A stretch of DNA of 64,000 bases from a plasmid. A program made the translations under genes and the position numbers. Positions within the stretch are counted from its first letter, which is position 1. Each line of letters begins with the position of its first letter. Below, piece after piece: positions 8,960 to 62,644 of the stretch. The notes beneath the pieces were generated by a model. That model did not search any database. It was not told the DNA's origin and saw only the letters and a list, made by a program, of their open reading frames with translations. The stretch lies in the sequence record AP029161.1; one strand, 5' to 3'.

Positions 8960-10060
8960 TCATTTTATAAACCGACTATACAGCTCTGATATTTTTCCAC
9001 CGCTTTGAAGAAAAAATGAATTTTTTTCGTTGCTATTTTCATGAATAAAATATTTGTATTTGTTTGTCTTATTTTTAAAATCATTTTTTAACTCATACTC
9101 AGCATCTTCTCTTGAATCAAAGTACTCAATAAATTCTGAAATATTTTCTACTCCGTGCTGAGGATAGGTTGAGTTAATCATTTCCAAAAAAAGATGTTTT
9201 AAAGAATTATTAATATAAAAATAAGAAGATACATATTCTCTTCTATAATATTTACTTTCATCTTTTTTAACCTGCAAAATAGAAGGAAGAGGAATGCCAA
9301 ACCTACCACCATCACACCATACCAAAATCAATTCACCAATTTTGGTTTCTTTGTATTTAATTGTTAAAATGTCGGTGTAAGATTTCTGATCGTTAAAAAC
9401 TAAAACCCAATTTTCAAAATATTCTCTATTAAATTTACTTTTCTCAGAAATTATTGAAAAATTAGGATCTGGTTCATAATAAAAATGCAGTTTAGTATCA
9501 TTTACATAATTGTATTTCCAATTATTTTTATCTTTAAGATAAGTCATTATTTTTTCATTTGGAGTTTTGTCGATATTAAATCTTTCACGGTACATGTCTT
9601 CTATTTGTTTAGGAGTTGCGCTTCCATTCTTTGGTGTATTGCTGCTGCCAAGTCTCGTGTAAACTACACCTGCTCTAATTGTATCTTTTCCTTGACCATA
9701 GTCTTGCGTTAGAAAATAAGGTTTATGATTTATGTTTTGAATTTGAATAATATCTATAGGATTATCTCTGTAATTTAAAGCAAATAACTTTATATTAGGA
9801 AGATTATTTAATCTTGCATTTTTTACTAAGTCCATTAAGTCATTTTCTTTTTTTCTCTTAATATCATTTTTAATATCAAAGAAATTTTTATCGTCATCAA
9901 CGCCAAAAATAAGATATTTATACTTGCTATCAGTTTTTGAATTTGCAAGACATAATATGTCATGAATTAAATCTGAATTATTTTTATGATATTCTCTTTT
10001 AAAATCTATAAATTCACATTCTTGATTATTAATCAATTGCTTAATTTCTTCGTGATTCAT
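8960..10060 (-). CDS. AlbA_2 / Schlafen-like (divergent AAA) DNA-binding domain protein
   Basis: N-terminal pattern EFIDFKREY..LANSK..YLIFGVDDD typical of the AlbA_2 domain. The C-terminal ~200 aa are unassigned. Confidence 0.55.
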   Translation of the reverse strand: MNHEEIKQLINNQECEFIDFKREYHKNNSDLIHDILCLANSKTDSKYKYLIFGVDDDKNFFDIKNDIKRKKENDLMDLVKNARLNNLPNIKLFALNYRDNPIDIIQIQNINHKPYFLTQDYGQGKDTIRAGVVYTRLGSSNTPKNGSATPKQIEDMYRERFNIDKTPNEKIMTYLKDKNNWKYNYVNDTKLHFYYEPDPNFSIISEKSKFNREYFENWVLVFNDQKSYTDILTIKYKETKIGELILVWCDGGRFGIPLPSILQVKKDESKYYRREYVSSYFYINNSLKHLFLEMINSTYPQHGVENISEFIEYFDSREDAEYELKNDFKNKTNKYKYFIHENSNEKNSFFLQSGGKISELYSRFIK

Positions 10061-10159: not shown

Positions 10160-10624
10160 ATGAAAAAGCAAACTAAAAAAATAAAAAACCCAAAAGGATC
10201 TGGTCGAAAAAAACTATTTCAAGAAAAGTATCACGAAGAAATTATTCAGACCATGAAAAAAGGCCAAGGAGTTTCATTTTTTGCAGCTAAGATAGGAGTT
10301 TCAAAACAAACCATCTACAACTGGATTAACGAAAATGTAGAATTTAAGGAATCATTTGAAATTGCTCAGACAGCATGCCAAGCATTTTGGGAGAATTTGG
10401 CTTTAAATAATGCAGTAACAGCAAAAGGAAATGGGAATCAAATACAATACCAAATGAGTAAAAGATTTAGAGATGACTATGCTGATTCTTCTCAAATAAA
10501 TATTTTTAACTCTAATAATCAAAATGTAAATAGATCTATAAAAGATATGACAAGAGAAGAACTAGAAGCATATGAAAAAGATTTACTTCAAAAGTTGAAT
10601 TTAGAAAGCAATAATGAGCATTGA
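10160..10624 (+). CDS. terminase small subunit-like HTH protein
   Basis: Basic N-terminus with HTH (GVSKQTIYNWINEN). It lies immediately upstream of terL and overlaps it. Confidence 0.5.
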   Translation: MKKQTKKIKNPKGSGRKKLFQEKYHEEIIQTMKKGQGVSFFAAKIGVSKQTIYNWINENVEFKESFEIAQTACQAFWENLALNNAVTAKGNGNQIQYQMSKRFRDDYADSSQINIFNSNNQNVNRSIKDMTREELEAYEKDLLQKLNLESNNEH

Positions 10625-12029
10625 TATTCAAGAAAGAATTGCAATTCTTGAAAAGCTAAAAAAGATAAAAGAAAGAAAAAAAGAGCAAGATGATTTTCTA
10701 TCCTTCTGTATAAAAAGTTTTCCCAGATATAAAGCTGGTTGGGTCCATGAAGAAATTTGTAAAAAGTTAGAAAAATTTGCTCATGATGTTTATCTTGAAA
10801 AATCTCCTAGACTGATGATCTTTATGCCACCAAGACATGGAAAATCTTTTTTAGTTAGCGAAAGATTTCCTGCTTGGGTTTTAGGTAAATACCCTTATTT
10901 TGAATTTATTTCTGCAACATATGGAAAATCTTTAACACAAGGCTTTTCAAGAAAGTGCAGAAATTTAATTCACTCAAAATGGATAAAAGAAATATTCCCT
11001 AACTTTGACTTAAAGAAAGATAGTAAATCAGTTGATTTTTGGGAAACAACTTATGGTGGAGCTTTCATCGCAACTAGTATTGGTGGATCAGTAACTGGTA
11101 AAGGCGCACACATTTTATCAATTGATGATCCTCATAAAGGTATAGAAGAAGTTTTATCAGAAGTGATGAGAAACAAAACTCATGATTGGTATAAAACAGA
11201 TGCTTTTACACGTCTTTTACCTGGCGGTGGAGTAATTTTAACTCTTACGAGATGGCACGATGATGATTTAGCAGCAAGAATATTAGCAGAAGATACGGAT
11301 AATGAATGGGAAGTAATTTGTTACCCAGCGATAGCTACTGAAGATGAAGCGCATAGGAAAAAAGGAGAAGCATTACATCCAGAACGTTATCCTTTAAAAA
11401 TGCTTCAAAAGCTTTTAAAAACCCTTGGTTCGTTTTTCTTTAATGCTCTCTATCAACAGGACCCAGTGCCTGCTTCTGGAACAGTATTTAAAAAAGAATT
11501 TTGGAGATTCTATAATGAGCGATTTACTTTTTACGACAAAATTATTCAGGTTTGGGATTTAAGTTTTAAGGGTGACGAGAAAAGCGACTATACTGTGGGG
11601 CAAGTTTGGGGCAAAAAAGGAGCAAACTTTTATTTACTCGATCAAGTACGAGGTCAATGGGAATTTACTCAGCAAATTGAACAAATAAAAATGTTATCAA
11701 AAAAATATCCACTTGCATATTCAAAATACATAGAAGAAAAAGCTACGGCGACAGCGGTTATTTCTACACTCAAAAAAGAAATTACAGGTTTAATTCCATT
11801 CAATCCAAAATCTGATAAATACTCACGAGCTTTAGTTGCACAGCCTCCACAACAAGCAGGAAATATTCATCTACCTAACCCTCAACTAAATCCTTGGGTA
11901 AACGATTATATTGATGAACATTCTCGTTTTCCAAAAGGCAAAAATGATGATCAAGTCGATTGTACAAGTTTGGCGATGATTCAATTAAATAATAATGGGC
12001 TGGAGCATTTAAAAGCTTTGGTTTCTTAA
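10614..12029 (+). CDS. terminase large subunit
   Basis: ATPase motifs PPRHGKS and ILSIDDPHK, coupling motif LTRWHDDDL, and C-terminal nuclease Asp cluster GKNDDQVDCT. Confidence 0.85.
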   Translation: MSIDIQERIAILEKLKKIKERKKEQDDFLSFCIKSFPRYKAGWVHEEICKKLEKFAHDVYLEKSPRLMIFMPPRHGKSFLVSERFPAWVLGKYPYFEFISATYGKSLTQGFSRKCRNLIHSKWIKEIFPNFDLKKDSKSVDFWETTYGGAFIATSIGGSVTGKGAHILSIDDPHKGIEEVLSEVMRNKTHDWYKTDAFTRLLPGGGVILTLTRWHDDDLAARILAEDTDNEWEVICYPAIATEDEAHRKKGEALHPERYPLKMLQKLLKTLGSFFFNALYQQDPVPASGTVFKKEFWRFYNERFTFYDKIIQVWDLSFKGDEKSDYTVGQVWGKKGANFYLLDQVRGQWEFTQQIEQIKMLSKKYPLAYSKYIEEKATATAVISTLKKEITGLIPFNPKSDKYSRALVAQPPQQAGNIHLPNPQLNPWVNDYIDEHSRFPKGKNDDQVDCTSLAMIQLNNNGLEHLKALVS

Positions 12030-12859
12030 ATTTTAAATCCGAAATGCTTAAATGCTTTTTCTAGTAAATTCTTTTCATCTTCGGTTAGATTATTTTCTAA
12101 AATGTAGTTGCTAAATTTTTCGCTAGTAAATTTTTTACTTTCTTTTTGGGGAACGCGTTCCCCAGTCAGCCCACAAATTAAATTAAGCTCATCGATTAGT
12201 TTATCATCGCTTTCCCATTTTTTCTTGGAAATATTACAAAGAGAACGAAGGCTGAATTTTTCAGGGAACTCTTTGATTAACTCTCTTGCTTTTATTGGCC
12301 ACTGACCAACTTTTATTATATTTTTAATATATTTTTTATCTCGACTAAATTTTTTCGCTATGTCGTCAGCATCCCATCCTTGCGCAACTAGATCAGCGTA
12401 GCCCTCAGCTACATCAATTGGATGCAAGTCTTCACGTAGTAAATTTTCAATTAAAGCATGTTCAGTTCGTTTTGAAGAATTAGATGAGTAAACTTTAAGA
12501 TTAGCTTTAATTTTTTCAATACCAAGTTCTTTGCATGCTAAGATTCTTCTATGACCAGCGACAGCAATTAGTTCAAAATCATCACCATCAATGTTTCTCC
12601 TAACCTCAACTAGAACTGGCTGGATCACTCCCTCACTTGCAATACTATTCTTTAAATCCAAAAATTCAGGTTTACTAATATCAATTCTGTTTCTAATATT
12701 TTCATTTAATTTTATCTGATTTACGTTTAATGCCACTGTTTTATTTTCTTCAGCAGCTTTTTCATAAAGTAAAACAGTATTTAGTCTATCAGAATTAGAA
12801 ACAACGCTAGCAAATCTACTTAATTTTTCAGCTTCAATCGCTTGACTAATAGTACTCAT
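12026..12859 (-). CDS. parB: ParB-like partition protein
   Basis: ParB-box motifs GHRRILACKELG and ENLLREDLHPID. It lies downstream of parA and overlaps it by 4 nt. Confidence 0.8.
   Translation of the reverse strand: MSTISQAIEAEKLSRFASVVSNSDRLNTVLLYEKAAEENKTVALNVNQIKLNENIRNRIDISKPEFLDLKNSIASEGVIQPVLVEVRRNIDGDDFELIAVAGHRRILACKELGIEKIKANLKVYSSNSSKRTEHALIENLLREDLHPIDVAEGYADLVAQGWDADDIAKKFSRDKKYIKNIIKVGQWPIKARELIKEFPEKFSLRSLCNISKKKWESDDKLIDELNLICGLTGERVPQKESKKFTSEKFSNYILENNLTEDEKNLLEKAFKHFGFKI
12148..12163. promoter_or_regulatory. 16-bp perfect palindrome GGGGAACGCGTTCCCC (candidate parS copy inside the parB 3' end)
   Basis: Identical to the copy at 13810..13825. A GC palindrome of this kind is very improbable by chance in AT-rich DNA. 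Confidence 0.5.
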
Positions 12860-13737
12860 ATTTCAAGATCCTCTATTTCGATAGAATTTAAACTGTAATT
12901 TTCTTTCTTAATTTCTAATTTAGAAGTTGCTCCTGTAATTTCTTTCTGTGCTAAATCAATCTGTTTTTGAACTTCTTCAGCTAGGCTCAAATATGCTTTT
13001 GAAATTGGGCTTTTTTCTTTATAAATAATTAGTGCTTGATGTTTCATCGATGCACCATAAATCATTTGCGAAAATGGAATAATAGTTTCAAAAATGTGGA
13101 TATCATTTTCATTACCTATTTTTCTTAGAAGCTTTTCACCTGCTAATTGGAATGCGCTTTTTTTATCGAATTTCTGAATTACACATCCAAGCATTTTTAG
13201 ATTTGAATTGTAGTATTGTTTTATTTTTTCGGCATTGCCAACAACCATTGCTAGCCCGTCAATCACGTCGTTTTCAGCAAACATTGGGACCAAGTAAAAA
13301 TCACTCTCGCGAAGTGCTGACTGAAAAAGGCAATCAGGATTCGGATTTGTATCAATGATGACAAAATCATAACTATTGCGAACATCACTTAAAACATCTG
13401 CTAGCAAAAAAAGTTGTTCGGGCTTTCCTGTATGACGTAAAACTATTTCCTCTAAAGCTGTCGAACTTGGCAGTAAATCTAAATTCTCTACATTTGTTTT
13501 CACTGCAAACTTTTTAAAATTAACTTTTTTTAAAATTGCATTAGCTACAGATTGTTCTGATTTTAATTCACGACTACGAACATTCAACAATTCAGTAGCA
13601 TTAGCTTGATAATCGAGGTCCACCAAAAGAACTTTTTTTCCTGAATAAGCAAGGCATGAAGCTAAATTAACAGCACATGTTGTTTTTCCAGAACCTCCCT
13701 TCTGAATTGTGACCGTTATAATTTTTCCCATTCTCAT
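12856..13737 (-). CDS. parA: ParA partition ATPase (type Ib)
   Basis: Deviant Walker A KGGSGKTT. Confidence 0.85.
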   Translation of the reverse strand: MRMGKIITVTIQKGGSGKTTCAVNLASCLAYSGKKVLLVDLDYQANATELLNVRSRELKSEQSVANAILKKVNFKKFAVKTNVENLDLLPSSTALEEIVLRHTGKPEQLFLLADVLSDVRNSYDFVIIDTNPNPDCLFQSALRESDFYLVPMFAENDVIDGLAMVVGNAEKIKQYYNSNLKMLGCVIQKFDKKSAFQLAGEKLLRKIGNENDIHIFETIIPFSQMIYGASMKHQALIIYKEKSPISKAYLSLAEEVQKQIDLAQKEITGATSKLEIKKENYSLNSIEIEDLEI

Positions 13738-13896: not shown

Positions 13897-14550
13897 TTAG
13901 TTGAACATTCTTCCAGTTTTTTGAATATTTTTTTCTACTTCTTTTGCCTGAAGTGCTAATTGTTCAATTATTTCTTGATGAGGTCTATTTTTAAATTTAT
14001 CTATTACAGCTCTTCGTTCAGGATTATCAGGTGGTAGAACAGTTAGTATAACAGCTGCCATATTCTCCATATTTCCTTCTAATTGCTTAACCTTTTCCTC
14101 TAACTTAGATACTCTTTCAACATCTGCTTTATCGTTAATTTTAACATCCAATTTTGTAATGTCTTCAACTGTTGCAACTGTTGATCTAGAAAGTCTCTCT
14201 CTATTTATGTAGTTCAAAACGCCCGATGATGGAGCAAAGTAATTTTTTTTGTAAATGAAATTTGGATCATTAGGTTTAACTTTCCAAACTAAAACTCCTT
14301 TAAGTATAAGTTTCTCCCTTAGCGAATCAAAAGATTGTCCTTCTGAAATTAAACCAGCTCTTTCAAAATCATGTCGATAAAGCAAAACAAATTCTCCATC
14401 TCTTTTTTCTAATGGAGCTTCAACAAAAGCGTTTAGTAAAAAATGAGCTAGTTTCGATGCACTTTCAATTTTTTTTCTTCGTAAAAATTGTTCCAAGCTT
14501 CCATAGACCTTATATTTACCATTTACAGCCATGTTACTTCGTCCTTCCAT
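13897..14550 (-). CDS. putative replication initiator (Rep). Assignment is by context only.
   Basis: Gene lies immediately downstream of the iteron array and upstream of parS-parAB. The protein itself has no recognisable motif, only a C-terminal coiled coil. Confidence 0.35.
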   Translation of the reverse strand: MEGRSNMAVNGKYKVYGSLEQFLRRKKIESASKLAHFLLNAFVEAPLEKRDGEFVLLYRHDFERAGLISEGQSFDSLREKLILKGVLVWKVKPNDPNFIYKKNYFAPSSGVLNYINRERLSRSTVATVEDITKLDVKINDKADVERVSKLEEKVKQLEGNMENMAAVILTVLPPDNPERRAVIDKFKNRPHQEIIEQLALQAKEVEKNIQKTGRMFN

Positions 14551-14670: not shown

Positions 14671-14843
14671 TACTACGAATTTACTACGCTATAATTTTAA
14701 GCTACTACGAATTTACTACGCTAAAGTAACAGATCGTAGTAAATTCGTAGTATGAAATTTTAATAACTATTTAATATTATTAAAAATACTAGTTTATGAG
14801 TGCGTAGTAAATTCGTAGTAAATTCGTAGTAAATTCGTAGTAG
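14671..14843. repeat. iteron-like array of TACTACGAATTT (11-12 bp period) repeats
   Basis: Two direct 19-mers TACTACGAATTTACTACGC, one inverted copy, then 3.5 tandem inverted units CGTAGTAAATT. Confidence 0.65.
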
Positions 14844-34634: not shown

Positions 34635-35480
34635 ATGCAACCAGCATTTAGCTACTATGGCGGCAAGTGCCGCATGGCAAAAGAGATTTTAAAATTGACA
34701 CCCAATCACGTAACTTACGTGGAACCTTTTTGTGGTTCTGCTGCAGTTTTATTCAAAAAGAATTACATAGAGCCATCAAGTAAATATCAGGAGGTTATTA
34801 ATGATAGTAATGGGTATTTAATTAATTTTTATCGTCAATTAAGAAACAACGGAGATCAGTTAATTGAAAAACTTGAACAAACTCTTTATTCAAAAGCTGA
34901 GCATGAACTAGCAATTAAAATTGCTAAAAATCTTGATCAGTATTCCGAGCTTGAGAGAGCATGGAGTTTCTATGTTAATATTCAGCAATCATTTTCTAGT
35001 TCTTTAAATAAGGTTTGGAATATTTCCAGATGCTCAAAGAGCATGTCGTTTACATGGGTAAATAAGTTAAAAAATTTAAGAGAAATTCACTCAAGGCTTT
35101 TAGAGCTTACTGTAGAAAACGAAGATGCAATTAAATGCATTCAGAAATGGGATGATCATGGGGTCTTTTTTTATGTAGATCCTCCTTATATTAATACTGA
35201 TTGTGGGCATTATAAAGGTTACACTGTAGAACAGTATAAAGAGCTTATTTATACTTTGGATCACTGCAAAGGTTCTTTTATTTTATCATCATATGAGAAT
35301 GAATACTTGCCTAAAAAATGGAAAAAAGAGTTTCATGAACTGAAAGTAACATTTAATTCAAAAATAAAAGATAAGTCTCGGACAGAAGTTTTAAGTTTCG
35401 TAGATCGTTCTCGCTATATTAAAGATGAAAAAATCAAGGAAAATGCTAAAAAATTTGGGGAGTTATTAAGGGCTGTATAG
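34635..35480 (+). CDS. dam: N6-adenine DNA methyltransferase (Dam / D12 class)
   Basis: Motif I VEPFCGSAAV and motif IV DPPY (YVDPPYINTD). SD taggagg. Confidence 0.8.
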   Translation: MQPAFSYYGGKCRMAKEILKLTPNHVTYVEPFCGSAAVLFKKNYIEPSSKYQEVINDSNGYLINFYRQLRNNGDQLIEKLEQTLYSKAEHELAIKIAKNLDQYSELERAWSFYVNIQQSFSSSLNKVWNISRCSKSMSFTWVNKLKNLREIHSRLLELTVENEDAIKCIQKWDDHGVFFYVDPPYINTDCGHYKGYTVEQYKELIYTLDHCKGSFILSSYENEYLPKKWKKEFHELKVTFNSKIKDKSRTEVLSFVDRSRYIKDEKIKENAKKFGELLRAV

Positions 35481-38437: not shown

Positions 38438-39602
38438 AAAGTATGGTCTAACTAAATCTGGATTTGTAAAAAAAGATTTTCTTACTTGCTATTCGGAAAT
38501 AAGCGAATCTTTTAAAAGTAAAATAAATCAAAATATTGATTTAAGTCCTACATCTGTTTTTGGAAATATAATAGGAATTTTTGCAGAAAGAGAATCTTTA
38601 TTGTGGGATGGATTACAAGAGTTAAGTACAGCTATGAATCCAAATAACGCCACAGGAATACCATTACAAAATGCTATAGCCATTAATGGAATTTCAAAAC
38701 AAGAGGCGACAGCTTCAAAAGTTGTTCTAACATTTTCTGGAAAAATAGGAACAAAAATTCCAGCTGGAACAGGTGTTGCAATTCCTGATACTTCTTATCA
38801 ATTTAATACAAAATTAGACTCAGTAATTGGACAAAATGGGACTGTTGATATTGAAGCTGAATGCTCAATTTTAGGAGAAGTAAAAGCTTTAGCAGGAAGC
38901 ATTACTAAGATTTTAAATCCGATTTATAATATTGAGTCATGTGCAAACAAAAATGATGCGGTTGTGGGTCAATTTGAAGAAACGGAAGAAGATTTAAAAA
39001 TTAGAAGATTGCAATTACTGCAAAGAGCTGGTTCAGCAACTGAAAAAGGAATTCGTGCAGCAATACAAAAAGTTGAGGGTGTTAAAACATCTATATTATT
39101 AAATGCTGAAACTTCAAAATATATTCCTTCTGGTTCAATTCATTTGTATGTCGAGGGTGGCGAACCATTGGCAATTGCAAATGCAATTAATAATTCAAGA
39201 GGTGGTGGCTGCCTCTTATATTCAGATGAAAGTTCTATTAAAAATACCATAAAAGATTCTCAGGGAATCGACAGAGTAATTTCATTTTCTCGACCAAAAG
39301 AAAAAATAATTTATCTTTCAATTGCTTTAAAAACAAATTCAGATTTTCCTGTAAATGGATTTGATCAAGTTAAAAGTTCAATTATTGATTATGCAAATAA
39401 AAATTTAACGATTGGAAAATCACTAATAAATTCCTCTTTATATGTACCTATAAATTCTGTTAGTGGAATAATAGGAATTCAAATTTATCAAGGAATAGCT
39501 CCTAATCCAACCGATTCAATAAATATACAAGTAGAGCCTATTGAATATGCCAAATTAGATACATCAAGAATAAATTTTATTGATTGGAAAGGTAAATTTT
39601 AA
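38430..39602 (+). CDS. baseplate J-like protein (XkdT / gp6-like)
   Basis: 390 aa, follows the wedge gene, typical size and order. Confidence 0.6.
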   Translation: MDKKYGLTKSGFVKKDFLTCYSEISESFKSKINQNIDLSPTSVFGNIIGIFAERESLLWDGLQELSTAMNPNNATGIPLQNAIAINGISKQEATASKVVLTFSGKIGTKIPAGTGVAIPDTSYQFNTKLDSVIGQNGTVDIEAECSILGEVKALAGSITKILNPIYNIESCANKNDAVVGQFEETEEDLKIRRLQLLQRAGSATEKGIRAAIQKVEGVKTSILLNAETSKYIPSGSIHLYVEGGEPLAIANAINNSRGGGCLLYSDESSIKNTIKDSQGIDRVISFSRPKEKIIYLSIALKTNSDFPVNGFDQVKSSIIDYANKNLTIGKSLINSSLYVPINSVSGIIGIQIYQGIAPNPTDSINIQVEPIEYAKLDTSRINFIDWKGKF

Positions 39603-44009: not shown

Positions 44010-45614
44010 TTATTCATATATTTCTTTAATAAAATCTTTAAATGCTTCAGCTATTTCATATAGAGTAATACTACTATTTAATTCACTTTTTTGATGAAGA
44101 ATTTCTTGATTTAAATTTAAAATTTTATTTGATTGTTCAATAATTTTTTCTACACCAAAATTTTTTAAATTATCTTTATTTATAAATAAAATCATCATCC
44201 AATTATATATATTTACATACTCAATTTTACTAAATATTGATTCAATTTTATACTCCCTGTAAAATTCATTTAAAACAAACTCTCTAAATAGATAATATTC
44301 TACAGGAAAACCAAAGAAATTACATTTTTTATGATATACAATAGTGATAAAGTAGAGTTCTTTAAATTTTAAATAGTGATCGAAATTTTCTTTTACTATG
44401 TTATTAATTAAAGAATTCCAAAAATTATGAATTATACTTTGATTATTAAAATCTTTAAGATTTGTATCTCCTAATCTTAGATGGTTACATAAAACCTTTA
44501 AATTTTCTTCTAGTTCAAATTCATTTAAATGTATTTTTTTGGAAATTCTCCTTATTAAATCATTTAAAGTATTAAATTTTACTAGCATACTATAGCTATG
44601 GTAATCAGAATTGCTATTATTTAAATTAAAATATAGCATAAATTCAAAGTAATCAATTATTTCTATAATCTCTCTTGTGCTAAATATTTTTAAAAACTTA
44701 AGCTCATCAGGAAGAGATTTTGTTTCATTTAAAATAAATGGAAACATGTTGTTATTAATTTTTTTATGCAAAATATTATTTAATATCTCAGGAATTATAT
44801 CTAATTGAAAATATTTCGCATTTAATTTTTCGATCATTTCAATAGCATTGTTTTTATTGTCATTTTTCGAGTATCCAAAGGGGACTATGTATTTTCTCCT
44901 GTATCTGAGTAAATTTGATAATAAGGCCCAACGGTCTTCTTCTTTTAATGAACTTCGATCAAGATCATCTAAAATTATTACTTTAATTTTGTTATCGTAC
45001 CATAATTCAATAGATTCAAAAAAACAATTATAAATGTATGATATTTTTAATTTATTTGTTGCAAAAATAAAAGGAATAATTAAAAAAATGAAATAAATAA
45101 TTGTACTGTATGATGAATAATCAAAACCGACAATTTTTTTAAAATATAATTCATTATAAAATATAATCAAAATTGATAATATAAAATAATAAATGGAAAA
45201 AAATATTTTCCAGTGTTTTGGTGCTATATGTGAATACGCTTCATCTAAAGTAGAAATTCCAAAAAAAGAAATTTTCTTTTTATAATATCTACTATTCAAG
45301 CATAATTCATGAACTACTCTATCTGAAAGAGCGGATTTACCCGCACCCCATTCACCAATTATAAACACTGTTTTATTATTTCTATCTAAAAAAGCTTTAA
45401 TTTCACTAATTTTATTAGTATGATATTTGAATTCTATAAAATCCGAAGGAGTATTATTTTTATCTATTTCATTCCAAAATAGATAAAAAGATTCTTTCAA
45501 TATTTCATAGTATGTATATATGTTAAAAATTCTTTTGATTTTATTAGTACAATTATCTTTTAATTTAATATATTTTTCAGATTTTATCATACAAATTATT
45601 TCACCAGTGTACAC
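44010..45614 (-). CDS. KAP-family P-loop NTPase
   Basis: Walker A GEWGAGKSAL and Walker B VIILDDLDR are separated by two inserted TM helices (FFSIYYFILSILIIFY and IIYFIFLIIPFIFA), the hallmark of the KAP family. Confidence 0.7.
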   Translation of the reverse strand: MYTGEIICMIKSEKYIKLKDNCTNKIKRIFNIYTYYEILKESFYLFWNEIDKNNTPSDFIEFKYHTNKISEIKAFLDRNNKTVFIIGEWGAGKSALSDRVVHELCLNSRYYKKKISFFGISTLDEAYSHIAPKHWKIFFSIYYFILSILIIFYNELYFKKIVGFDYSSYSTIIYFIFLIIPFIFATNKLKISYIYNCFFESIELWYDNKIKVIILDDLDRSSLKEEDRWALLSNLLRYRRKYIVPFGYSKNDNKNNAIEMIEKLNAKYFQLDIIPEILNNILHKKINNNMFPFILNETKSLPDELKFLKIFSTREIIEIIDYFEFMLYFNLNNSNSDYHSYSMLVKFNTLNDLIRRISKKIHLNEFELEENLKVLCNHLRLGDTNLKDFNNQSIIHNFWNSLINNIVKENFDHYLKFKELYFITIVYHKKCNFFGFPVEYYLFREFVLNEFYREYKIESIFSKIEYVNIYNWMMILFINKDNLKNFGVEKIIEQSNKILNLNQEILHQKSELNSSITLYEIAEAFKDFIKEIYE

Positions 45615-46370: not shown

Positions 46371-46816
46371 ATATCAACTACTTGTCTACGATCATCAACG
46401 CAAAAAATCACGTCATATTTTGGCTGAATGTGCAAATTGTAGATCTCTTGCTTAATCACTGCATCCTGTCGAAAATCTTGATCTTTTCTCATTAGCAGTA
46501 AATCGTAATATTGATCATGGGTGGCTAGCCATTCTTCAGTTATTTTTCTTGTAAATTCATTTCTACCAGTAACTAATATTATTTTGTGAGAATCTTTAAA
46601 ACTTGAAATTATTGAAGCGCACCAAGTGTTTAACTTATCTTGAATTATATTTTCATCTTTTGAAAATGATTTCCAATCTTTTTTAGTTCCTGCAATAAAG
46701 CATCTTCTGTGCTCACAATCTGCTAAAGTTCCATCCAAATCGATTATAATTGCTTTTTGTTTCATAATTTTTCCTTTTATTAATACATTGGGCTTTGTTG
46801 ATATAGAGCACTCCAA
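46319..46816 (-). CDS. HAD-superfamily phosphatase (polynucleotide 3'-phosphatase / 5'-nucleotidase-like)
   Basis: Motif I IIDLDGTLAD, motif III K, motif IV VDDR. Confidence 0.65.
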   Translation of the reverse strand: MECSISTKPNVLIKGKIMKQKAIIIDLDGTLADCEHRRCFIAGTKKDWKSFSKDENIIQDKLNTWCASIISSFKDSHKIILVTGRNEFTRKITEEWLATHDQYYDLLLMRKDQDFRQDAVIKQEIYNLHIQPKYDVIFCVDDRRQVVDMWRKLGLTCLQCADGEF

Positions 46817-47487
46817 AATGTTTTATGAATATTATCTTTCAATAATTGATAATCAAATCTATCACTTAAAAATTTTCCATCATCATCAATAGCTTTATAA
46901 ATTAAATGTTTCCATTCTAGTTTTTTAAATTTGGTCATTAAATAAGCTGTATTATCATTAAGAGACCATCTTGATCCAACATGAATAAAAATACCACCTT
47001 TTTTCATGTGTTTTCTTATTAACTGATTTAAGCATTGTTTCATACTATCTCTTATTAATTTATTATTTAGTTTGTGCTCATCATTAATAAAATCATCTGT
47101 TATAATTAAGTCATATCTAGCTCCTTTTAATAGGGATAAATTGCTGTATGAATTAAAATTTAAATTTGTACATGAGAAATTTTCACGTAATTTTATCTTA
47201 CTTAATATTTTAAATTCTCTAAATATTTTTTCAGAAGAATAATTATTTGTCCCTACTACACAAATATTTATTTTATCATTTTTAGAATATAAATAACTTG
47301 GTAAGTATTTACAGAATAATTCAGTTTTTAAATGCCTTGGAGGCAAGTCAAATATTAAATACGATTTATTTTTGAATAAATTTGTTTCAATTTCATAATC
47401 TATCTTTGATAATATATCATCAATATAAGGATACATTTCAAGATTTATAAATTTTTTAACAAAATAATTTCTAAAATTGTTTTCCAT
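46780..47487 (-). CDS. terminase large-subunit ATPase-domain-only paralog
   Basis: PPRHLKT, YDLIITDDF, IFIHVGSRWSLND and ALYQQSP align with terL PPRHGKS, ILSIDDP, ILTLTRWHDDD and ALYQQDP. The protein ends 5 aa after the Q motif, with no nuclease domain. Confidence 0.5.
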   Translation of the reverse strand: MENNFRNYFVKKFINLEMYPYIDDILSKIDYEIETNLFKNKSYLIFDLPPRHLKTELFCKYLPSYLYSKNDKINICVVGTNNYSSEKIFREFKILSKIKLRENFSCTNLNFNSYSNLSLLKGARYDLIITDDFINDEHKLNNKLIRDSMKQCLNQLIRKHMKKGGIFIHVGSRWSLNDNTAYLMTKFKKLEWKHLIYKAIDDDGKFLSDRFDYQLLKDNIHKTFWSALYQQSPMY

Positions 47488-50308: not shown

Positions 50309-51502
50309 ATGCAAAATAATAGAAATAATTTGAGTAATCCGAAATATTTATGGTTCTTTGTAATGTCATTTACAGTAATTATGATTTTTGCGAATTGGTT
50401 TGATCCCAGACTAATTTTAATTCCTTTTTTTAATTTAGAAACTGATGCTGGAACTTTAATCTTTCCACTTACATTTTTAGTTTCAAATATCATTACAGAA
50501 GTATATGGATACAAACATGCCAGAAAAGCTATTTGGTGCGGCTTTGGATTTAATTTATTTGGCCTCTTATTTGGCCAGTTACTAATACATTTTCCTTCTC
50601 CAATTTATGCTGATAATGTAGCTTTTGATTCTGTAATTAAAAAAAGCTCGATTATTGTAATTGCTTCAATGATTAGCTATCTTGTTTCAGAGCCATTAAA
50701 CTCATATATAATGTCCAAAATGAAAATTAAATTTAAAAATTTAACTGCTTTGAGATTTGTAATGTCAACTTTTTTTGCTGCATTTGTTGATTCTATTGTT
50801 TTTACAGCGATAGCATTTTCTTGGTACTTAAAAATTGAAGACTGTGTAAAATTAGCTTTAACTATGTGGATGTTAAAAGTTTTAATTGAATCAATTGGTA
50901 CATTATTTTCTGTTAGGCTAACAAATTACTTAAAAAATAAAGAAAGAATAGATATTTATGATCGAAAAACAAAATTCAATATATTTAGTTTAAACACAAA
51001 TTACACTACTGAAGATAATGAATACAAAAATAATTTATCAAGTATAAACTCAGAAAACAATACTGAATATTATATAACAAATGATTTAACTGAAAAAGAA
51101 ATTGAAAGCTCATGGAATTTAGTAAAAAATTGTTTTTGGTCTGAAGAGATTCCTTACGTTAAGTTCAAAAGTGCTTTAAATAATTCATTAAATTTTTGCA
51201 TTGTTAATGTAAATTCGGGTCATATATGTGGGTTTGGAAGAGTAATAACTGATTACTACACTTATGCATATTTATGCGATGTCGTGATTCATCCTGAATA
51301 TAGGAAAAAAGGATTAGGAAATATATTAATTGACAATATTTTAAATCATAAGGATTTACAGGGATTGAAAACTATAAATTTACGTACAACTAAAGAAGCT
51401 AAAAAAATATATATTAAAAATGGTTTTAAATTAGCAAAAGATCCTGAATATATTTTAGAAAAAGAAGATTTAAATATTTATAAAAAATTTAAGGCAGTTT
51501 AA
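50309..51502 (+). CDS. fusion protein: N-terminal Vut_1/YhhQ queuosine-precursor transporter domain, C-terminal GNAT acetyltransferase domain
   Basis: FPLTFLVSNIITEVYG, FVDSIVFTAIAF and MWMLKVLIES resemble YhhQ. C-terminus has HPEYRKKGLGNILI GNAT motif A. Confidence 0.65.
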   Translation: MQNNRNNLSNPKYLWFFVMSFTVIMIFANWFDPRLILIPFFNLETDAGTLIFPLTFLVSNIITEVYGYKHARKAIWCGFGFNLFGLLFGQLLIHFPSPIYADNVAFDSVIKKSSIIVIASMISYLVSEPLNSYIMSKMKIKFKNLTALRFVMSTFFAAFVDSIVFTAIAFSWYLKIEDCVKLALTMWMLKVLIESIGTLFSVRLTNYLKNKERIDIYDRKTKFNIFSLNTNYTTEDNEYKNNLSSINSENNTEYYITNDLTEKEIESSWNLVKNCFWSEEIPYVKFKSALNNSLNFCIVNVNSGHICGFGRVITDYYTYAYLCDVVIHPEYRKKGLGNILIDNILNHKDLQGLKTINLRTTKEAKKIYIKNGFKLAKDPEYILEKEDLNIYKKFKAV

Positions 51503-52151
51503 CCTTAATTATTTCTCCAAGTATTTCATAATTTATATTTAGCTCTTCGATCTGAGAAGATTCTTTATCAATACTGCCTAACAAAATTCTTTTTCCATTA
51601 ATCAAAATTCTTTTTAATGATATTTTATCTTTATATTTAATAGCACAAATTGTATCATTTTCAGGTTTTTTATTAATATTTACAAACCAAATTGAGCCTT
51701 CATTAAAAATAGGTTTTATAAAATCATCAAATTTAAAGCCAAATATCTTATCGTTTATATATTTTATATCAATATCAGTATCAGTGTAAAACAAAGCTTC
51801 TTTTGAATCAGAAGGACTATAAACTGGAATATTTTTCAGTGTTTTCTTTGGAATAATACTAACATCTTCAGTGTAAATTTTCTTGACTCCTAGAATATCA
51901 TCAAGTGAAATATTATACCCATTATTTTGAAAATAATTAGCAATTTTTTTCAAAACCATTTTAGAAATGTATTTCGTTTTTTTTGTTTCATCATTACTTA
52001 ATAAACGATAAAAAACAGATGAAGAAACGTCTATAGCCTCAGCCAAAGCATTTAAAGAAAAATTAGAGTCTTTATCTTTTTTTAAATTTATTAATTTAAT
52101 TATCTGATTTTGAATATGATGCGTATTTTCGACGCTGTCCCACGCTGCCAC
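51489..52151 (-). CDS. CI-like HTH transcriptional regulator
   Basis: N-terminal HTH LNALAEAIDVSSSVFYRLL. C-terminal domain lacks clear S24 catalytic residues. Confidence 0.45.
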   Translation of the reverse strand: MAAWDSVENTHHIQNQIIKLINLKKDKDSNFSLNALAEAIDVSSSVFYRLLSNDETKKTKYISKMVLKKIANYFQNNGYNISLDDILGVKKIYTEDVSIIPKKTLKNIPVYSPSDSKEALFYTDTDIDIKYINDKIFGFKFDDFIKPIFNEGSIWFVNINKKPENDTICAIKYKDKISLKRILINGKRILLGSIDKESSQIEELNINYEILGEIIKVKLP

Positions 52152-52279
52152 GACATCTCTCCTAAATTTTTAAAATTATATTGCTAAAAAAATCGTTATG
52201 CTTTATAAGCATATTCAACACTTAGCATTATCAAGGAGATAAGTGAAGTGGTTTAAAAAAAAAGAGGCGCACATTTTGA

Positions 52280-53584
52280 ATGCACACCACTACCGCAAAT
52301 AGAATGTATCTCAAATGTGCACAAAAATCAAATATTTCGCACAGGGAGAGCTACGTGTCTGATTTTATTATGTCAAATGCTTACCAAAAATCCTCCAAAA
52401 CCAGAAAAACATACAAAAATAAATTAATTTTAAGACCGATGAAAGAGGGTTATACGCTTGGGCATGCTCAAAAAGAAGCTTATAATGGTGGACGCTCATT
52501 AAGAGCGATTTGGTCAAATTCGAGTTTAAAGCCAAATCAAAAATTAGTGTTGTTGTGTCTTGCGTCCCACTTAAATTTCAAAAATACTTTTAAAGCTTGG
52601 CAGAAAATTTCTGCAAAACAAATTGCAAGTGAAACGCAATTTGGAATTCGTACTATCCATTCTATTTTAGCTGATTTAGTAAAAAATGGTTATTTGTTAA
52701 AAAAACAAAATTTTTCAAGCAAAACTTTTTTACAAGAAGAAAATAGTTATTGTTTATCAGATAAGCTTTTTGATGAGCATGTTATTTATTTGCAAAAAAG
52801 TTTTATCCCCAAGCACGATGAGCACGTTAAAGAATTTAAGCAACAAAAATTTGCAAAAAAGAGTTATATACCTTCTGCAAAACCTGCAGAGGCGGTAAGC
52901 AAAGCCTGCAACCCTGCCTTGCAAGATTCGCAAGCCGCCATTGCAAAACCTGCAGACGTTTTTCCTCTTGTATTTTCCCCTAATTTTCTCCCTTTAAATA
53001 ATTCCATGTGTGGTGAAAATAAATCACACACAAAAAATGAACATAAAAATAGCAAAAATTTAAAACAGGCAAGTATTATTGTTTGCGAGTTGCTTAAGCA
53101 TAAATTAAATAAACGCTTTATCCCAAATTTTGAATGTGAGGGCATTATAGAAAGGTCAATAAGCAAGCTTAATATTATTGATATTAAGATAATCTTAGAC
53201 TTTTGTAAGGAAGCAATCTCTAATCCCAATTACAAGAAGATTAACAGTTATGAAAATATTGAAGTTATTTTCATTCAAGAGCTTGAAAGTTTCATTAATG
53301 ATAAAAATTATATTTCAAATTTCAGAATTTCAGATCATAAAGAAATAAAAACGGAGATAATTAAAGCTGAACCTCTTGCAGAAAACAAAACTCAAACTGT
53401 AATAGAAGAATATCCTGAACCATTCAAATCATGGTTCAAGACGCTCAACGAAACAACAAAAAATACTATTCGAAAAGAAATAAAAATTCATGGCAGAGTT
53501 AAATTTTTTAACTTAATCCTTCCATCCGTAAGAGCTTATAAATCCTTTATAGAGCAATTAGACTCAGAAAGAAGGGCTGCATGA
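52280..53584 (+). CDS. putative phage replication initiator (winged-helix N-terminal region). True start is probably downstream of 52280.
   Basis: NQKLVLLCLASHLN..ISAKQIASETQFGIRTIHSILADLVKNGYL winged-helix-like. Confidence 0.35.
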   Translation: MHTTTANRMYLKCAQKSNISHRESYVSDFIMSNAYQKSSKTRKTYKNKLILRPMKEGYTLGHAQKEAYNGGRSLRAIWSNSSLKPNQKLVLLCLASHLNFKNTFKAWQKISAKQIASETQFGIRTIHSILADLVKNGYLLKKQNFSSKTFLQEENSYCLSDKLFDEHVIYLQKSFIPKHDEHVKEFKQQKFAKKSYIPSAKPAEAVSKACNPALQDSQAAIAKPADVFPLVFSPNFLPLNNSMCGENKSHTKNEHKNSKNLKQASIIVCELLKHKLNKRFIPNFECEGIIERSISKLNIIDIKIILDFCKEAISNPNYKKINSYENIEVIFIQELESFINDKNYISNFRISDHKEIKTEIIKAEPLAENKTQTVIEEYPEPFKSWFKTLNETTKNTIRKEIKIHGRVKFFNLILPSVRAYKSFIEQLDSERRAA

Positions 53585-53841: not shown

Positions 53842-54030
53842 TTTTTTTCGTATTTTACCACTACCTGATGGTAAAATACCCTTAAAAAAAGTCAGACAAA
53901 AAAATCGACACATGAGATTTTTTAAATTACATTTTTATCAGAACCCTTTTATAAAATCGTTCCTTTAGGAATAGCCGAAGTAAAAAGTAAAAGGGTTCAC
54001 AAGAAACCATTCCCTTTGGGAGTACCGAAA

Positions 54031-54621
54031 ATGCAGAGTATTAAGATAATTAATACCTCTAATAATGAGGTATTTTATGCTACTGAAAAATCAGTAGGAT
54101 TTGATATTGCAGCGGATGAAAGTGTTTTAATTTTACCGCTGCAAGTTAAAAAAATAAAAACTGGCTTAAAATGGAAAATAGAAGATAATTCTGAATTAAT
54201 AAGCATAAAAGAGGCTGCTAAATTAGTTAAATGCTGCACCTCAACAATCCATCGACAATGTAAAAAAGGTAGGCTTAATTTTGAAAAAATAGATGGAGTT
54301 TATTTTATAAATAAGGATCATCTTTTATCGTATTTTAATAATGAAGAAATAATCGATTTACCTGAAAAATATGAGCTTCAAATAAGACCTAGAAGCTCCT
54401 CACTACTAAAAGAAAAACTTCATATACAAATAGGAACAATTGACCCTGATTACACTGGTGAAATTTGTATTATCGCACAAAATATTTCTTTTAAACCAAA
54501 ATTAATTTTAAAAGGGGAGCGGATTGCTCAAGGAATAATATCGAAAGTTTGTTTAGCTGAAAACGTATTTAGTAGAAATATAATTAGAAACAATAATGGT
54601 TTTGGGAGTACTGGAAAATGA
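54031..54621 (+). CDS. dut: dUTPase with ~50-aa HTH-containing insertion between motifs I and II (start revised to the ATG at 54031)
   Basis: All five dUTPase motifs present (VGFDIAA, RPRSS, GTIDPDYTGE, RIAQG, NNNGFGSTGK). Insertion ISIKEAAKLVKCCTSTIHRQCKKGRL is excisionase/MerR-like HTH. Confidence 0.65.
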   Translation: MQSIKIINTSNNEVFYATEKSVGFDIAADESVLILPLQVKKIKTGLKWKIEDNSELISIKEAAKLVKCCTSTIHRQCKKGRLNFEKIDGVYFINKDHLLSYFNNEEIIDLPEKYELQIRPRSSSLLKEKLHIQIGTIDPDYTGEICIIAQNISFKPKLILKGERIAQGIISKVCLAENVFSRNIIRNNNGFGSTGK

Positions 54622-56173: not shown

Positions 56174-56302
56174 AATTAGCCCAAAAACTAGAGTGGCCAG
56201 CGCATGCCGCTGACCCCTACTCGATTACCGAAATGCTATAAAGCATACAGAACTATAGAATAACATGTAGTTTTGTAAAAGCAATACGAAAGTTAAAAAT
56301 CT

Positions 56303-57262
56303 ATGAATGCTTCATTTATAAAGCTATCGTTTCCATTAAGTGCAAAATTGGGGATACCTAAAGCATTAATTTTACAACGCATTTGCGACTGGATTAGATA
56401 TAATAAGACTAAAAAAAATATGAATATTAATGGAAATGTATGGGTCTATAGATCTGCAAAAGAGCTTGCAGATGATTTAGATGGCAATTTTTCCATTAGA
56501 TCTATTGAAAGACATTTAAATTCTCTTATTAAAAACGGTTGGATAATAAAAGAAAACTTTAATAAAAATACTTTTGATAGGACCTGTTGGTATACGGTCA
56601 ATGCAAAAAAAATAAAGGAAACTTTTAATAATTGGGAACTTGAAACAAACTTTAAAGATTCTGACCTAATTGATGATCTCGATCCGTCACATCTGTCGGA
56701 TTCGTGTCCGACAGATGTGACGGATCGAGATCATCAAGTTGTCGGAATGGATTCCGACAATCATGAAAATCTCCCTATATATAATAAAAGAGAAGAAATA
56801 AAAGAAGAAAAAAAGAAGAAGATTGCAAAAAAAGAAAATTCTTGCTTGAAAGAAAAAAAACTTAATGAACGAGCCTCTCAAATGCTTAAGTCAGGGATTG
56901 AGGCTTATGTCAAAGCTTATGAGTATCGTTACAAAGCAAAATTTCTTGATTTTCCCACTCTGAGTCGCTCAATTCAACAAATCATAAAAAAAATGGGCAC
57001 ATCATTTTCGGAACAAAATTTAATTGATTGCATCAATTGCTATATGCGCTCTCAAAATTCATGGCATGTAACTAAAGGCCATTCGCCACTTTATCTAGCA
57101 TCAGATATTCAAGGAATTTTTGCAGCGACTCAGAACAAACAGCAAATCAAGACACAAACACAGGCACGCAAGGACGACGTTTCACAGTCAATCGACACTA
57201 ACATCATCAACGCTATCAACTCGCTTAAAAACGAAAAGAATAATGAAATTTTGGAGATTTAA
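56303..57262 (+). CDS. replisome organizer / DnaD-like replication protein containing a candidate internal origin
   Basis: N-terminal winged-helix-like region. Internal 31-bp perfect palindrome with four GATC sites. Confidence 0.4.
   Translation: MNASFIKLSFPLSAKLGIPKALILQRICDWIRYNKTKKNMNINGNVWVYRSAKELADDLDGNFSIRSIERHLNSLIKNGWIIKENFNKNTFDRTCWYTVNAKKIKETFNNWELETNFKDSDLIDDLDPSHLSDSCPTDVTDRDHQVVGMDSDNHENLPIYNKREEIKEEKKKKIAKKENSCLKEKKLNERASQMLKSGIEAYVKAYEYRYKAKFLDFPTLSRSIQQIIKKMGTSFSEQNLIDCINCYMRSQNSWHVTKGHSPLYLASDIQGIFAATQNKQQIKTQTQARKDDVSQSIDTNIINAINSLKNEKNNEILEI
56670..56737. repeat. 31-bp perfect inverted repeat TTGATGATCTCGATCCGTCACATCTGTCGGA / loop TTCGTG / TCCGACAGATGTGACGGATCGAGATCATCAA (candidate ori)
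   Basis: Read directly. Contains four GATC. GC-rich relative to flanks. Confidence 0.7.
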
Positions 57263-62284: not shown

Positions 62285-62400
62285 AAATTCCTCCTAGGCT
62301 CGCAAGCCATTGTGTTTGCGTATCAGAGGGTTCGCATTGCTCGTCTCACCCACGAGTGCGGTCGCTTCCCTCTTTAATATTTATAACCGACATTTTGTCG
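62285..62400 (-). other. GC-rich structured element in the 5' leader of the 62018..62284 gene (unclassified cis-regulatory RNA or att remnant)
   Basis: Nested stems GAGGG..CCCTC, CTCGT-CTCACCC-ACGAG, GGCTCGCAAGCC. Locally high GC. Confidence 0.3.
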
Positions 62401-62644
62401 GTTGTCAAACTTTCAACATCTTTTTTTTATTAGTTTTTTTGTTATCAAGATTTGTTTAATTAATTGGCAATTTGTTTTATCAAGTTTTGACTTATCTATA
62501 TTTTATAAGTGTTTTTTAGTTTTTTGAAATTTTACTTAGTTTGGATAGTGTTTTTATACTTTAAAATAAAAGATAAGTTTAAATTTGATGATTTTTTAGG
62601 CGATTCTTTGGATTTGGTAAAATTGATTTAAATTATTGATATTA

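Follow-up and report, generated by a model that had tools for sequence, protein, structure and literature searches.

A candidate initiator-binding array around a perfect palindrome inside a replication gene of the Pigmentibacter ruber phage-plasmid pGTC16762-2

What is a long perfect palindrome doing inside a protein-coding gene? The locus that raises this question lies on pGTC16762-2, a circular plasmid of Pigmentibacter ruber with 67,953 bp and 27.75% GC (PMC11385108). The stretch of 64,000 nucleotides (64 kb) analysed here, hereafter the window, has a GC content of 27.6%. Within it, the replication-initiator gene Rep1 carries an inverted repeat with four GATC sites, which the original prediction, made from the letters of the DNA, had interpreted as a candidate methylation-sensitive origin comparable to that of phage lambda. 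By analogy with known initiators, we consider with moderate confidence that the palindrome belongs to an array of cis-acting initiator-binding sites in the linker-coding segment of Rep1, and that this array is most likely a replication origin. The lambda-like part of the prediction is retained by this reading, given the linker position, the repeated unique core, the A+T tract and the conserved half-sites, while the methylation part is not. The gene and the palindrome are arranged as follows.

56303..57262, plus strand: Rep1 replication-initiator gene, 319 amino acids, containing the whole element
56303..56650, plus strand: N-terminal winged-helix DNA-binding domain (about residues 1-116), with a predicted local distance difference test score (pLDDT) of 70-85 for residues 10-115
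56670..56737, no strand: perfect palindrome with 31-nt arms and the spacer TTCGTG, encoding residues 123-145 of the disordered linker
56864..57262, plus strand: C-terminal conserved domain (residues 188-319), to which most invariant columns of an 11-sequence alignment belong

The left arm (56670-56700) reads TTGATGATCTCGATCCGTCACATCTGTCGGA, and the right arm (56707-56737), 6 nt away, is 100% complementary to it. The 31-bp perfect repeat and its 6-nt loop had thus been described exactly, in arms, position and complementarity. It is the longest inverted repeat of the window and the sole perfect one of that size. Its placement inside a replication gene at 56303..57262 was also borne out, as the palindrome falls within an open reading frame (ORF) that matches phage replication-initiator families. 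The Rep1 protein has the same sequence as GTC16762_33180 of P. ruber. Its PHROG matches are to replication-initiation, O-like and DnaD-like families (4e-16 to 6e-7), among them the “O-like” families 678 and 391 at 4e-8 and 6e-7, respectively.

The domain boundaries of Rep1 were taken from an AlphaFold model, which serves that purpose only, with a mean pLDDT of 54.5. In this model the linker (residues 117-187) has a pLDDT below 50 and is predicted to be disordered, and the C-terminal domain is helical. Foldseek returned winged-helix proteins as the nearest folds, including the RepA_N-type N-terminal domains 4pql, 4pt7 and 5kbj, with weak E-values of 0.01-0.06. The sole Pfam match of Rep1 was a weak one to HTH_36 at residues 44-81 (17.6 bits against a cut-off of 25). 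No Pfam match to the RepA_N domain (PF06970) was found in Rep1, and neither Rep1 nor any member of the family alignment matched the lambda O family (Pfam Phage_rep_O). A PDB sequence search with Rep1 found nothing, and protein searches of phages and plasmids returned distant homologues of the N-terminal domain only. Rep1 would therefore be best described, by analogy, as an initiator that works like lambda O and the RepA_N proteins and belongs to neither family. Its C-terminal domain is presumed to recruit a host factor, in analogy to that of lambda O and that of the Rep protein of pSK41.

The centre of the palindrome is a symmetric site that recurs a short distance downstream, ahead of an A+T-rich tract. 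The original prediction covered the palindrome and left out both the second hairpin, which repeats the palindrome centre, and the tract that follows. The components of the array are listed below.

56683..56691, minus strand: outer half-site variant TCCGTCACA (reverse complement TGTGACGGA), equivalent to CCGTCA/CCGACA at that position in relatives
56694..56713, no strand: dyad 1, TGTCGGA-TTCGTG-TCCGACA, the inner 20-bp core of the palindrome and a candidate binding site for a Rep dimer
56716..56724, plus strand: outer half-site variant TGTGACGGA, the mirror of 56683-56691
56740..56759, no strand: dyad 2, TGTCGGA-ATGGAT-TCCGACA, the second 20-bp core, 46 bp downstream and in another reading frame
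56775..56865, plus strand: A+T-rich (80%), strongly A-skewed tract without GATC, a candidate DNA-unwinding element

The heptamer TGTCGGA occurs four times on both strands of the 64 kb, and all four occurrences lie within the 66 bp of 56694-56759. The two dyads begin at different codon positions and encode different peptides (SDSCPT and VGMDSD, respectively), and the repeat is therefore one of DNA rather than of peptide. The A+T tract has a GC fraction of 0.198, with 57 A in 91 nt and an AT skew of up to 0.60, so that a GC-rich island of about 50% GC precedes an A-skewed tract of about 20% GC. What characterises a gene-internal origin was thus observed here in the form of candidate sites: an initiator composed of an N-terminal domain, a linker and a C-terminal domain, a cluster of dyads in the linker DNA, and an adjoining A+T tract. 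As a separate observation, a hairpin at 62385-62403 (AACCGACA-TTT-TGTCGGTT), 5.6 kb beyond the Rep1 array, reuses the CCGACA/TGTCGG half-site; it might serve as an additional site for Rep or resemble a terminator in function.

The comparison was extended to nine relatives with a long Rep (L001, L002, L003, L005, L006, L009, L010, L011 and L018; 52-65% protein identity). Relatives of the plasmid in general, including those with a short Rep, are found on contigs of 62-68 kb; their sources are P. ruber, with one contig labelled as a plasmid, Silvanigrella paludirubra, a metagenome-assembled genome of Spirobacillus and freshwater metagenomes. In all nine long-Rep relatives, CCGACA, CGGAATC or GACGGA half-sites are clustered at the same position of the gene, and these motifs are rare in the 5-14 kb of flanking sequence; one such array reads ACCGACA-N6-TCGGAATC-N4-ACCGACA. 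The number and orientation of the half-sites vary by lineage, which is typical of iteron arrays: the core is duplicated in L002, and the sites of L005 and L013 are mostly direct. The left 30 bp of the element in the window present reverse, forward and reverse half-sites within 24 bp, as in the core of L003; this is the span from the half-site at 56683-56691 to the next reverse half-site.

Could these motifs simply reflect the acidic peptide SESETD, with the palindrome a neutral product of inverted duplication or quasi-palindrome correction and no cis function? Such an accident would fit a palindrome that is present in one genome only, a linker that is disordered and variable in length, and a core that is read in a single frame (SESETD) in most relatives. 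However, the same DNA motif is read in two frames in the window, and CGGAATC/CGGAA likewise appears in two reading frames in L005. Elsewhere in the 64 kb the motif does not occur, and conservation extends to rare codons ending in G or C: the core uses codons that are uncommon on the plasmid (ACC 5%, TCG 5%, CCG 5%, GAC 16%), and the palindrome itself contains CTC, CTG, CCG (twice), TCG (twice), ACG and CGA, whose usage on the plasmid is 3% for CTC, 2% for CTG, 5% for CCG, 5% for TCG, 6% for ACG and 7% for CGA. In seven genes that align without gaps, identity at third codon positions is 0.86-0.95 over the core compared with a gene mean of 0.67, while amino-acid identity over the core is 0.52-0.82, at or below the gene mean of 0.80. 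The unique heptamer, the two reading frames, the rare conserved codons and the third-position conservation together support an element that acts at the DNA level. We thus regard a wholly neutral origin as quite unlikely, although an accident may hold for the outer 24 nt, where it is part of the reading that we favour.

The perfect palindrome is a different matter from the core. The original prediction had made its case depend on the palindrome recurring in related phages, and the long palindrome was absent from every relative examined. The best linker palindromes of the relatives are at the level of shuffled sequences, except for weak ones in L002 (27-nt arms with 21 matches) and L009 (14-nt arms with 12 matches). 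The alignment of the window with L005 and L013 runs without gaps across the palindrome and keeps the reading frame, and the palindrome is therefore neither an insertion nor a fold-back artefact of assembly. For the short-read assembly of this strain, the records contain no gene whose product is exactly that of Rep1, and a break of the short-read contig at the palindrome is possible. Taken with the conserved half-sites, these comparisons indicate that the long perfect palindrome is probably a lineage-specific elaboration of a conserved core. In the proposed sequence of events, 24 nt (8 codons) in the outer part of one arm would have been replaced, with the frame kept, by the reverse complement of the opposite arm. 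Template switching, which is known to perfect quasi-palindromes, could account for the replacement, and it would have created the fourth half-site and doubled two GATC sites to four.

Searches for the palindrome in other collections added little. A near-identity search of 14 kb against GenBank phages gave no match. In IMG/VR, a 17-mer from the palindrome arm had one match, on a single strand of an unrelated GC-rich contig, and was set aside as a chance match. The IMG/VR scan with TGTCGGA-N6-TCCGACA was uninformative, as 14 specified bases are too few and the matches listed included unrelated contigs. The scan with CGGAATC-N4-ACCGACA was uninformative as well. Among the matches listed for these two scans, L209 is a known S. 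paludirubra contig.

If the array is an origin, as we favour, its operation can be outlined by analogy. Dimers of the Rep1 N-terminal winged-helix domain would bind the dyads and build a nucleoprotein complex. This complex would then open the adjoining A+T tract, after which the conserved C-terminal domain of Rep1 might recruit the host helicase or primase.

Such a long stem could also act in the rep mRNA, as an RNase III target or as a translation barrier that limits Rep1 synthesis. A perfect stem of more than 20 bp is a plausible RNase III substrate. The single-strand fold of 56650-56780, which includes the small neighbouring hairpin, reaches -48 kcal/mol as DNA and -74 kcal/mol as RNA, with a z-score of about -11 to -12 (-11 for the RNA fold), and none of 200 shuffled sequences was as stable. 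Set against this, a significant hairpin at this place was found in none of the relatives, which would confine the role to this plasmid, and the conserved features are short half-sites in both orientations rather than a stem. The Rfam search gave sub-threshold matches to microRNA precursors alone, far below the gathering scores, as any generic long hairpin would. A scan for promoters and terminators detected nothing at the palindrome, and no run of T follows it. We therefore judge a function in the mRNA to be very unlikely.

The four GATC sites were the basis for the proposal that the Dam-like enzyme of the plasmid gates origin firing or packaging, as at P1 oriR, P1 pac and oriC. The features concerned are the following.

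56675..56684, no strand: left GATC pair (GATCTCGATC), each site formed by GAT (Asp) and the initial C of the next codon
56723..56732, no strand: right GATC pair (GATCGAGATC), the mirror image of the left pair
34635..35480, plus strand: D12-class N6-adenine DNA methyltransferase inside the tail-gene cluster, with a target that is not readable from the sequence

All four sites claimed for the 68 bp were located in the palindrome, at 56675, 56681, 56723 and 56729, and they form the tightest foursome of the window (54 bp from first to last, compared with 123 bp for the next). GATC is self-complementary, and each site in one arm reappears in the other by symmetry, so that the independent sites number only two. 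For an arm of 31 nt with that composition, the probability of at least two GATC is 0.006, which is nominally unusual and not overwhelming. The expectation of roughly one GATC per 400 bp was sound, with 158-163 sites expected across the window. The count across the window, put forward as a check, gave 116 sites (1 per 552 bp; observed/expected ratio 0.71), a mild depletion only. At the loci of the relatives this ratio is 0.73-1.30, so that the family as a whole spans 0.71-1.30 with no consistent trend.

Conservation of the sites is equally limited. GATC touches the forward half-site (AGATCGGAATC) in the cores of L006, L010, L011 and L018, and two sites are present in that of L002, which would suit methylation control; the cores of L001, L003, L005 and L009 contain none, and no positional conservation was observed across the relatives. 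In the window, GATC is absent from the A+T tract and from the whole interval between 56733 and 57332, and the sites lie in the GC-rich outer arms. The linker is rich in Asp, and each of the four sites lies where the Asp codon GAT precedes a codon that begins with C.

The claim that the plasmid encodes its own Dam methylase at 34635..35480 holds as far as a D12-class adenine methyltransferase, the presence of which speaks for methylation control. The protein scores 84 bits against Pfam D12 and 81.6 bits against TIGR00571 (Dam), below the curated cut-off of 114.85 bits for the latter, and it is distantly related to the solved GATC enzymes DpnM (1e-11) and T4 Dam (1e-5). The sub-cut-off score and this distance leave GATC specificity unproven. 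SeqA-type readers of hemimethylated GATC are not known outside some Gammaproteobacteria, and the host is a member of the Bdellovibrionota. With unconserved GATC sites, none of them in the A+T tract, a lineage-specific palindrome and a sub-cut-off Dam score, the P1-like coupling to methylation was not upheld, and we rate it as improbable as a role in the mRNA. Methylation control of the element is not supported, and nothing found ties the element to adenine methylation. As to the methyltransferase itself, its gene contains 6 GATC in 846 bp, and a protein with 96% identity is encoded on a 67.6-kb element of S. paludirubra (L139), on which Rep is only 55% identical. This difference implies separate histories of the two modules, that is, a mosaic; the 96% identical enzyme in that relative may also be counted in favour of methylation control.

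A more elaborate version would combine the methyltransferase with DNA structure. Under negative supercoiling, the palindrome with its A+T-rich flanks would extrude as a cruciform, and each hairpin arm would display two fully paired GATC and re-paired Rep half-sites. Together with the tail-cluster methyltransferase, this would form a switch sensitive to supercoiling and methylation that decides when the origin fires, for instance in lytic versus plasmid-mode replication. We regard this as highly improbable.

Rep1 is not the only initiator-like gene in the window. Rep2 (52280-53584) encodes 434 amino acids and shares 40% identity with Rep1 across 47 residues of the winged-helix region. Just past this region, at 52870-52960, a GC-rich and TGCA-rich repeat island contains TGCAAAACCTGCAGA twice, 66 bp apart, and TGCA-rich islands are present at the same place of Rep2 in the relatives. 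From its sequence, the island may be a second gene-internal origin, for example one that separates plasmid-mode from lytic replication. The two genes also share a feature upstream.

56233..56246, no strand: palindrome ATGCT-N4-AGCAT upstream of Rep1, with a near-twin, ATGCT-N5-AGCAT, at 52198-52212 upstream of Rep2

The window has four palindromes of the ATGCT/AGCAT type where 0.57 are expected. Two of the four are those upstream of Rep1 and Rep2, and a shared operator is possible, perhaps for the CI-like repressor (51489-52151, minus strand).

The presence of Rep2 bears on a further alternative, in which the array is a Rep operator or a determinant of copy number and incompatibility, acting by titration or handcuffing, with the true origin elsewhere, such as in or near Rep2. 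In iteron plasmids, initiator dimers bind inverted repeats for autorepression and monomers bind direct iterons for initiation, and the sites observed here are dyads. The gene that comes first downstream of the CI-like repressor is Rep2, which contains a repeat island of its own, and relatives with a short Rep lack the array altogether. The dyads, however, are not at a promoter, the adjoining A+T tract is something that an origin needs and an operator does not, and lambda O likewise binds dyad-symmetric iterons at a true origin. On balance, we consider an operator or copy-number role unlikely.

Other DNA transactions were considered as well: packaging from a pac site, recombination or dimer resolution, telomere resolution by a protelomerase, and rolling-circle nicking. 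An asymmetric 6-bp spacer between inverted repeats does recall the core site of a recombinase, and the P1 pac site has GATC hexamers within a gene. A pac site was rejected as about 22 kb of the circle separate the palindrome from the terminase genes. Recombination and dimer resolution were set aside, with no integrase, recombinase or protelomerase among the ORFs scanned, which are part of those in the window. A protelomerase target (telRL) does not fit a plasmid reported as circular (PMC11385108), an asymmetric spacer (TTCGTG) and a site inside rep, again with no protelomerase among the scanned ORFs. The initiator is a winged-helix protein and not an HUH nuclease, which argues against a rolling-circle nick site. 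Together, these possibilities are extremely improbable.

Several observations weigh against an origin within Rep1. The long palindrome is found in one genome only, a single case that says nothing about selection on it, and both origin function and Rep binding are predictions from the sequence. The GC skew along the window rises monotonically and follows gene orientation; it contains no origin signal, and nearly all genes point in the same direction. DnaA boxes are not enriched in the window (19 one-mismatch matches against 19.4 expected), and none lies near the element. High third-position conservation is partly expected in the A-rich tract from A/T-biased Lys and Glu codons. The window encodes two initiator-like proteins, either of which may serve plasmid maintenance or lytic replication. 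Finally, the short-Rep relatives of the Spirobacillus type (265 amino acids; L007, L012 and L015) have neither linker nor half-sites nor A+T tract, and no substitute iteron array was found near their rep genes. The array is therefore dispensable in some lineages, or the origin of these lineages is elsewhere, perhaps in Rep2. The same comparison suggests, at the sequence level, that the linker peptide is dispensable.

In the Spirobacillus-type relatives (L007, 14248-19264; L008; L012, 5037-5633), genes for Cas6f (Csy4) and a Cas2-Cas3 fusion were observed a few kb past rep. These genes correspond to a type I-F-like CRISPR-Cas system, and the L012 region also contains an IS605-type TnpA and TnpB.

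The gene content of the window places the array in a wider context. Tailed-phage genes were identified for the large terminase (TerL), portal, head protease, tape-measure, baseplate and sheath-initiator proteins. The window also encodes ParA, ParB, RecT, a CI-like S24 repressor, the D12-class methyltransferase and the two initiator-like proteins. With phage structural and lysogeny genes and partition and replication genes on one replicon, pGTC16762-2 is, judged by its gene content, a phage-plasmid. The “phage” of the original prediction is thus apt for the tailed-phage gene set and incomplete for a circular phage-plasmid with ParA/ParB. The CI-like repressor (51489-52151, minus strand) is divergent from the early operon, in a lambdoid setting.

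Other features of the plasmid were recorded in passing. The heptamer TACTACG occurs 10 times at 14671-14843 in an 11-bp register (TACTACGAATT), with 4 forward copies (two pairs) and 6 inverted copies (one pair and a run of four). This array is located upstream of the operon formed by 13897-14550, ParA (12856-13737) and ParB (12026-12859), all on the minus strand, and from its sequence it looks like a plasmid centromere (parS/parC-like). The dUTPase gene (54016-54621) has an inserted HTH_17 (excisionase/MerR-like) DNA-binding domain at residues 56-112; the long-Rep relatives share this fusion, which those of the Spirobacillus type lack. An ORF of 235 amino acids in the leftward early region (46780-47487, minus strand) is similar to the ATPase part of large terminases, their N-terminal half (PHROG 38, 1.5e-17), and lies far from the real terminase gene at 10614-12029. 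Cargo-like genes encode a queuosine-precursor transporter/acetyltransferase fusion (50309-51502), a Schlafen/AlbA_2 protein (8960-10060, minus strand) and a STAND NTPase-like protein (44010-45614, minus strand), all of which are candidates for defence or accessory functions. CCGG is nearly absent from the window (1 observed, 16 expected) and CGCG is at 0.39 of expectation, a scarcity that suggests strong avoidance of a host restriction system; the depletion of GATC (0.71) is mild by comparison with that of CCGG.

If confirmed, the array in Rep1 would give the Silvanigrellaceae (Bdellovibrionota) their first mapped origin and minimal replicon, from which a shuttle vector could be developed; this little-studied group includes the emerging human pathogen P. 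ruber. The phage-plasmids of 62-68 kb in this group form a family that appears to be undescribed, with two paralogous initiator genes, each with an internal repeat island. The case also illustrates how an iteron array in an unconstrained linker can be turned into a perfect palindrome.

Among known systems, the lambda origin was the one named in the original prediction. It consists of four 18-bp iterons and a 38-bp A+T-rich sequence at 39034-39160, inside gene O (PMC3349717). Rep1 resembles it in having the site in the initiator gene, between the parts encoding the DNA-binding N-terminal and the C-terminal regions, with dyad-symmetric repeats and an A+T tract directly after them. It differs in that two perfect dyads and two variant half-sites replace the four tandem iterons, and one dyad is extended to a perfect palindrome with 31-bp arms. 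Rep1 also has weak PHROG “O-like” hits only and no Pfam match to lambda O, no P-like helicase loader was found beside it, and plasmid maintenance here involves ParAB.

The gene plan of pSK41 is nearly the same as that of Rep1 and matches it more closely than lambda O does. The Rep protein of pSK41 has 319 amino acids, of which the N-terminal winged-helix 120 residues bind four Rep boxes central in rep, residues 121-199 form a dispensable linker encoded by the origin DNA, and the C-terminal domain is host-specific and binds DnaG (PMC5703833). Rep1, also of 319 amino acids, has its N-terminal domain at about residues 1-116, its linker at 117-187 and its C-terminal domain at 188-319. In the pPR9 variant of the pSK41-type replicon, the N-terminal domain is of the HTH_36 phage type (PMC5703833), and HTH_36 is the only Pfam family that Rep1 weakly touches. 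In contrast to the RepA_N proteins, Rep1 has no Pfam RepA_N match, its fold similarity is weak (E 0.01-0.06), and its candidate sites take the form of dyads and a palindrome. The pSK41-type replicons are from Gram-positive bacteria, whereas the present host, of the Bdellovibrionota, is Gram-negative, and no antisense-RNA control was identified.

Extrachromosomal prophages with partition systems provide a further parallel, as the replication gene is the minimal replicon in P1 (repL/oriL), N15 and PY54 (repA). In P1, oriL is inside repL. Rep1 showed no homology to RepL or to the N15-type RepA; pGTC16762-2 is circular and not linear, and no protelomerase was found among the ORFs scanned. The origins controlled by Dam (E. 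coli oriC, P1 oriR) share a GATC cluster near initiator sites and the presence of an adenine methyltransferase. Those origins carry GATC in the A+T-rich unwinding region, unlike the present element, where that region has none and the sites are unconserved, with two of them independent; a SeqA-like reader is not known for the host lineage. The oriV of one repABC plasmid, situated in repC (PMC3155836), is a further example of a gene-internal origin.

The palindrome itself has a likeness in origins of eukaryotic DNA viruses. The 27-bp palindrome of simian virus 40 and the 144-bp palindrome of herpes simplex virus (HSV) oriL carry initiator sites on both arms beside an A+T-rich element, and here a perfect palindrome with symmetric candidate initiator sites is found by an A+T element. 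The initiators are unrelated (superfamily 3 or UL9 helicases), and in HSV the A+T element is at the palindrome centre. An origin embedded in its initiator gene is thus a known arrangement; what is new here is the host lineage, a phage-plasmid family that appears undescribed and the perfect-palindrome form taken by the candidate site in one member.

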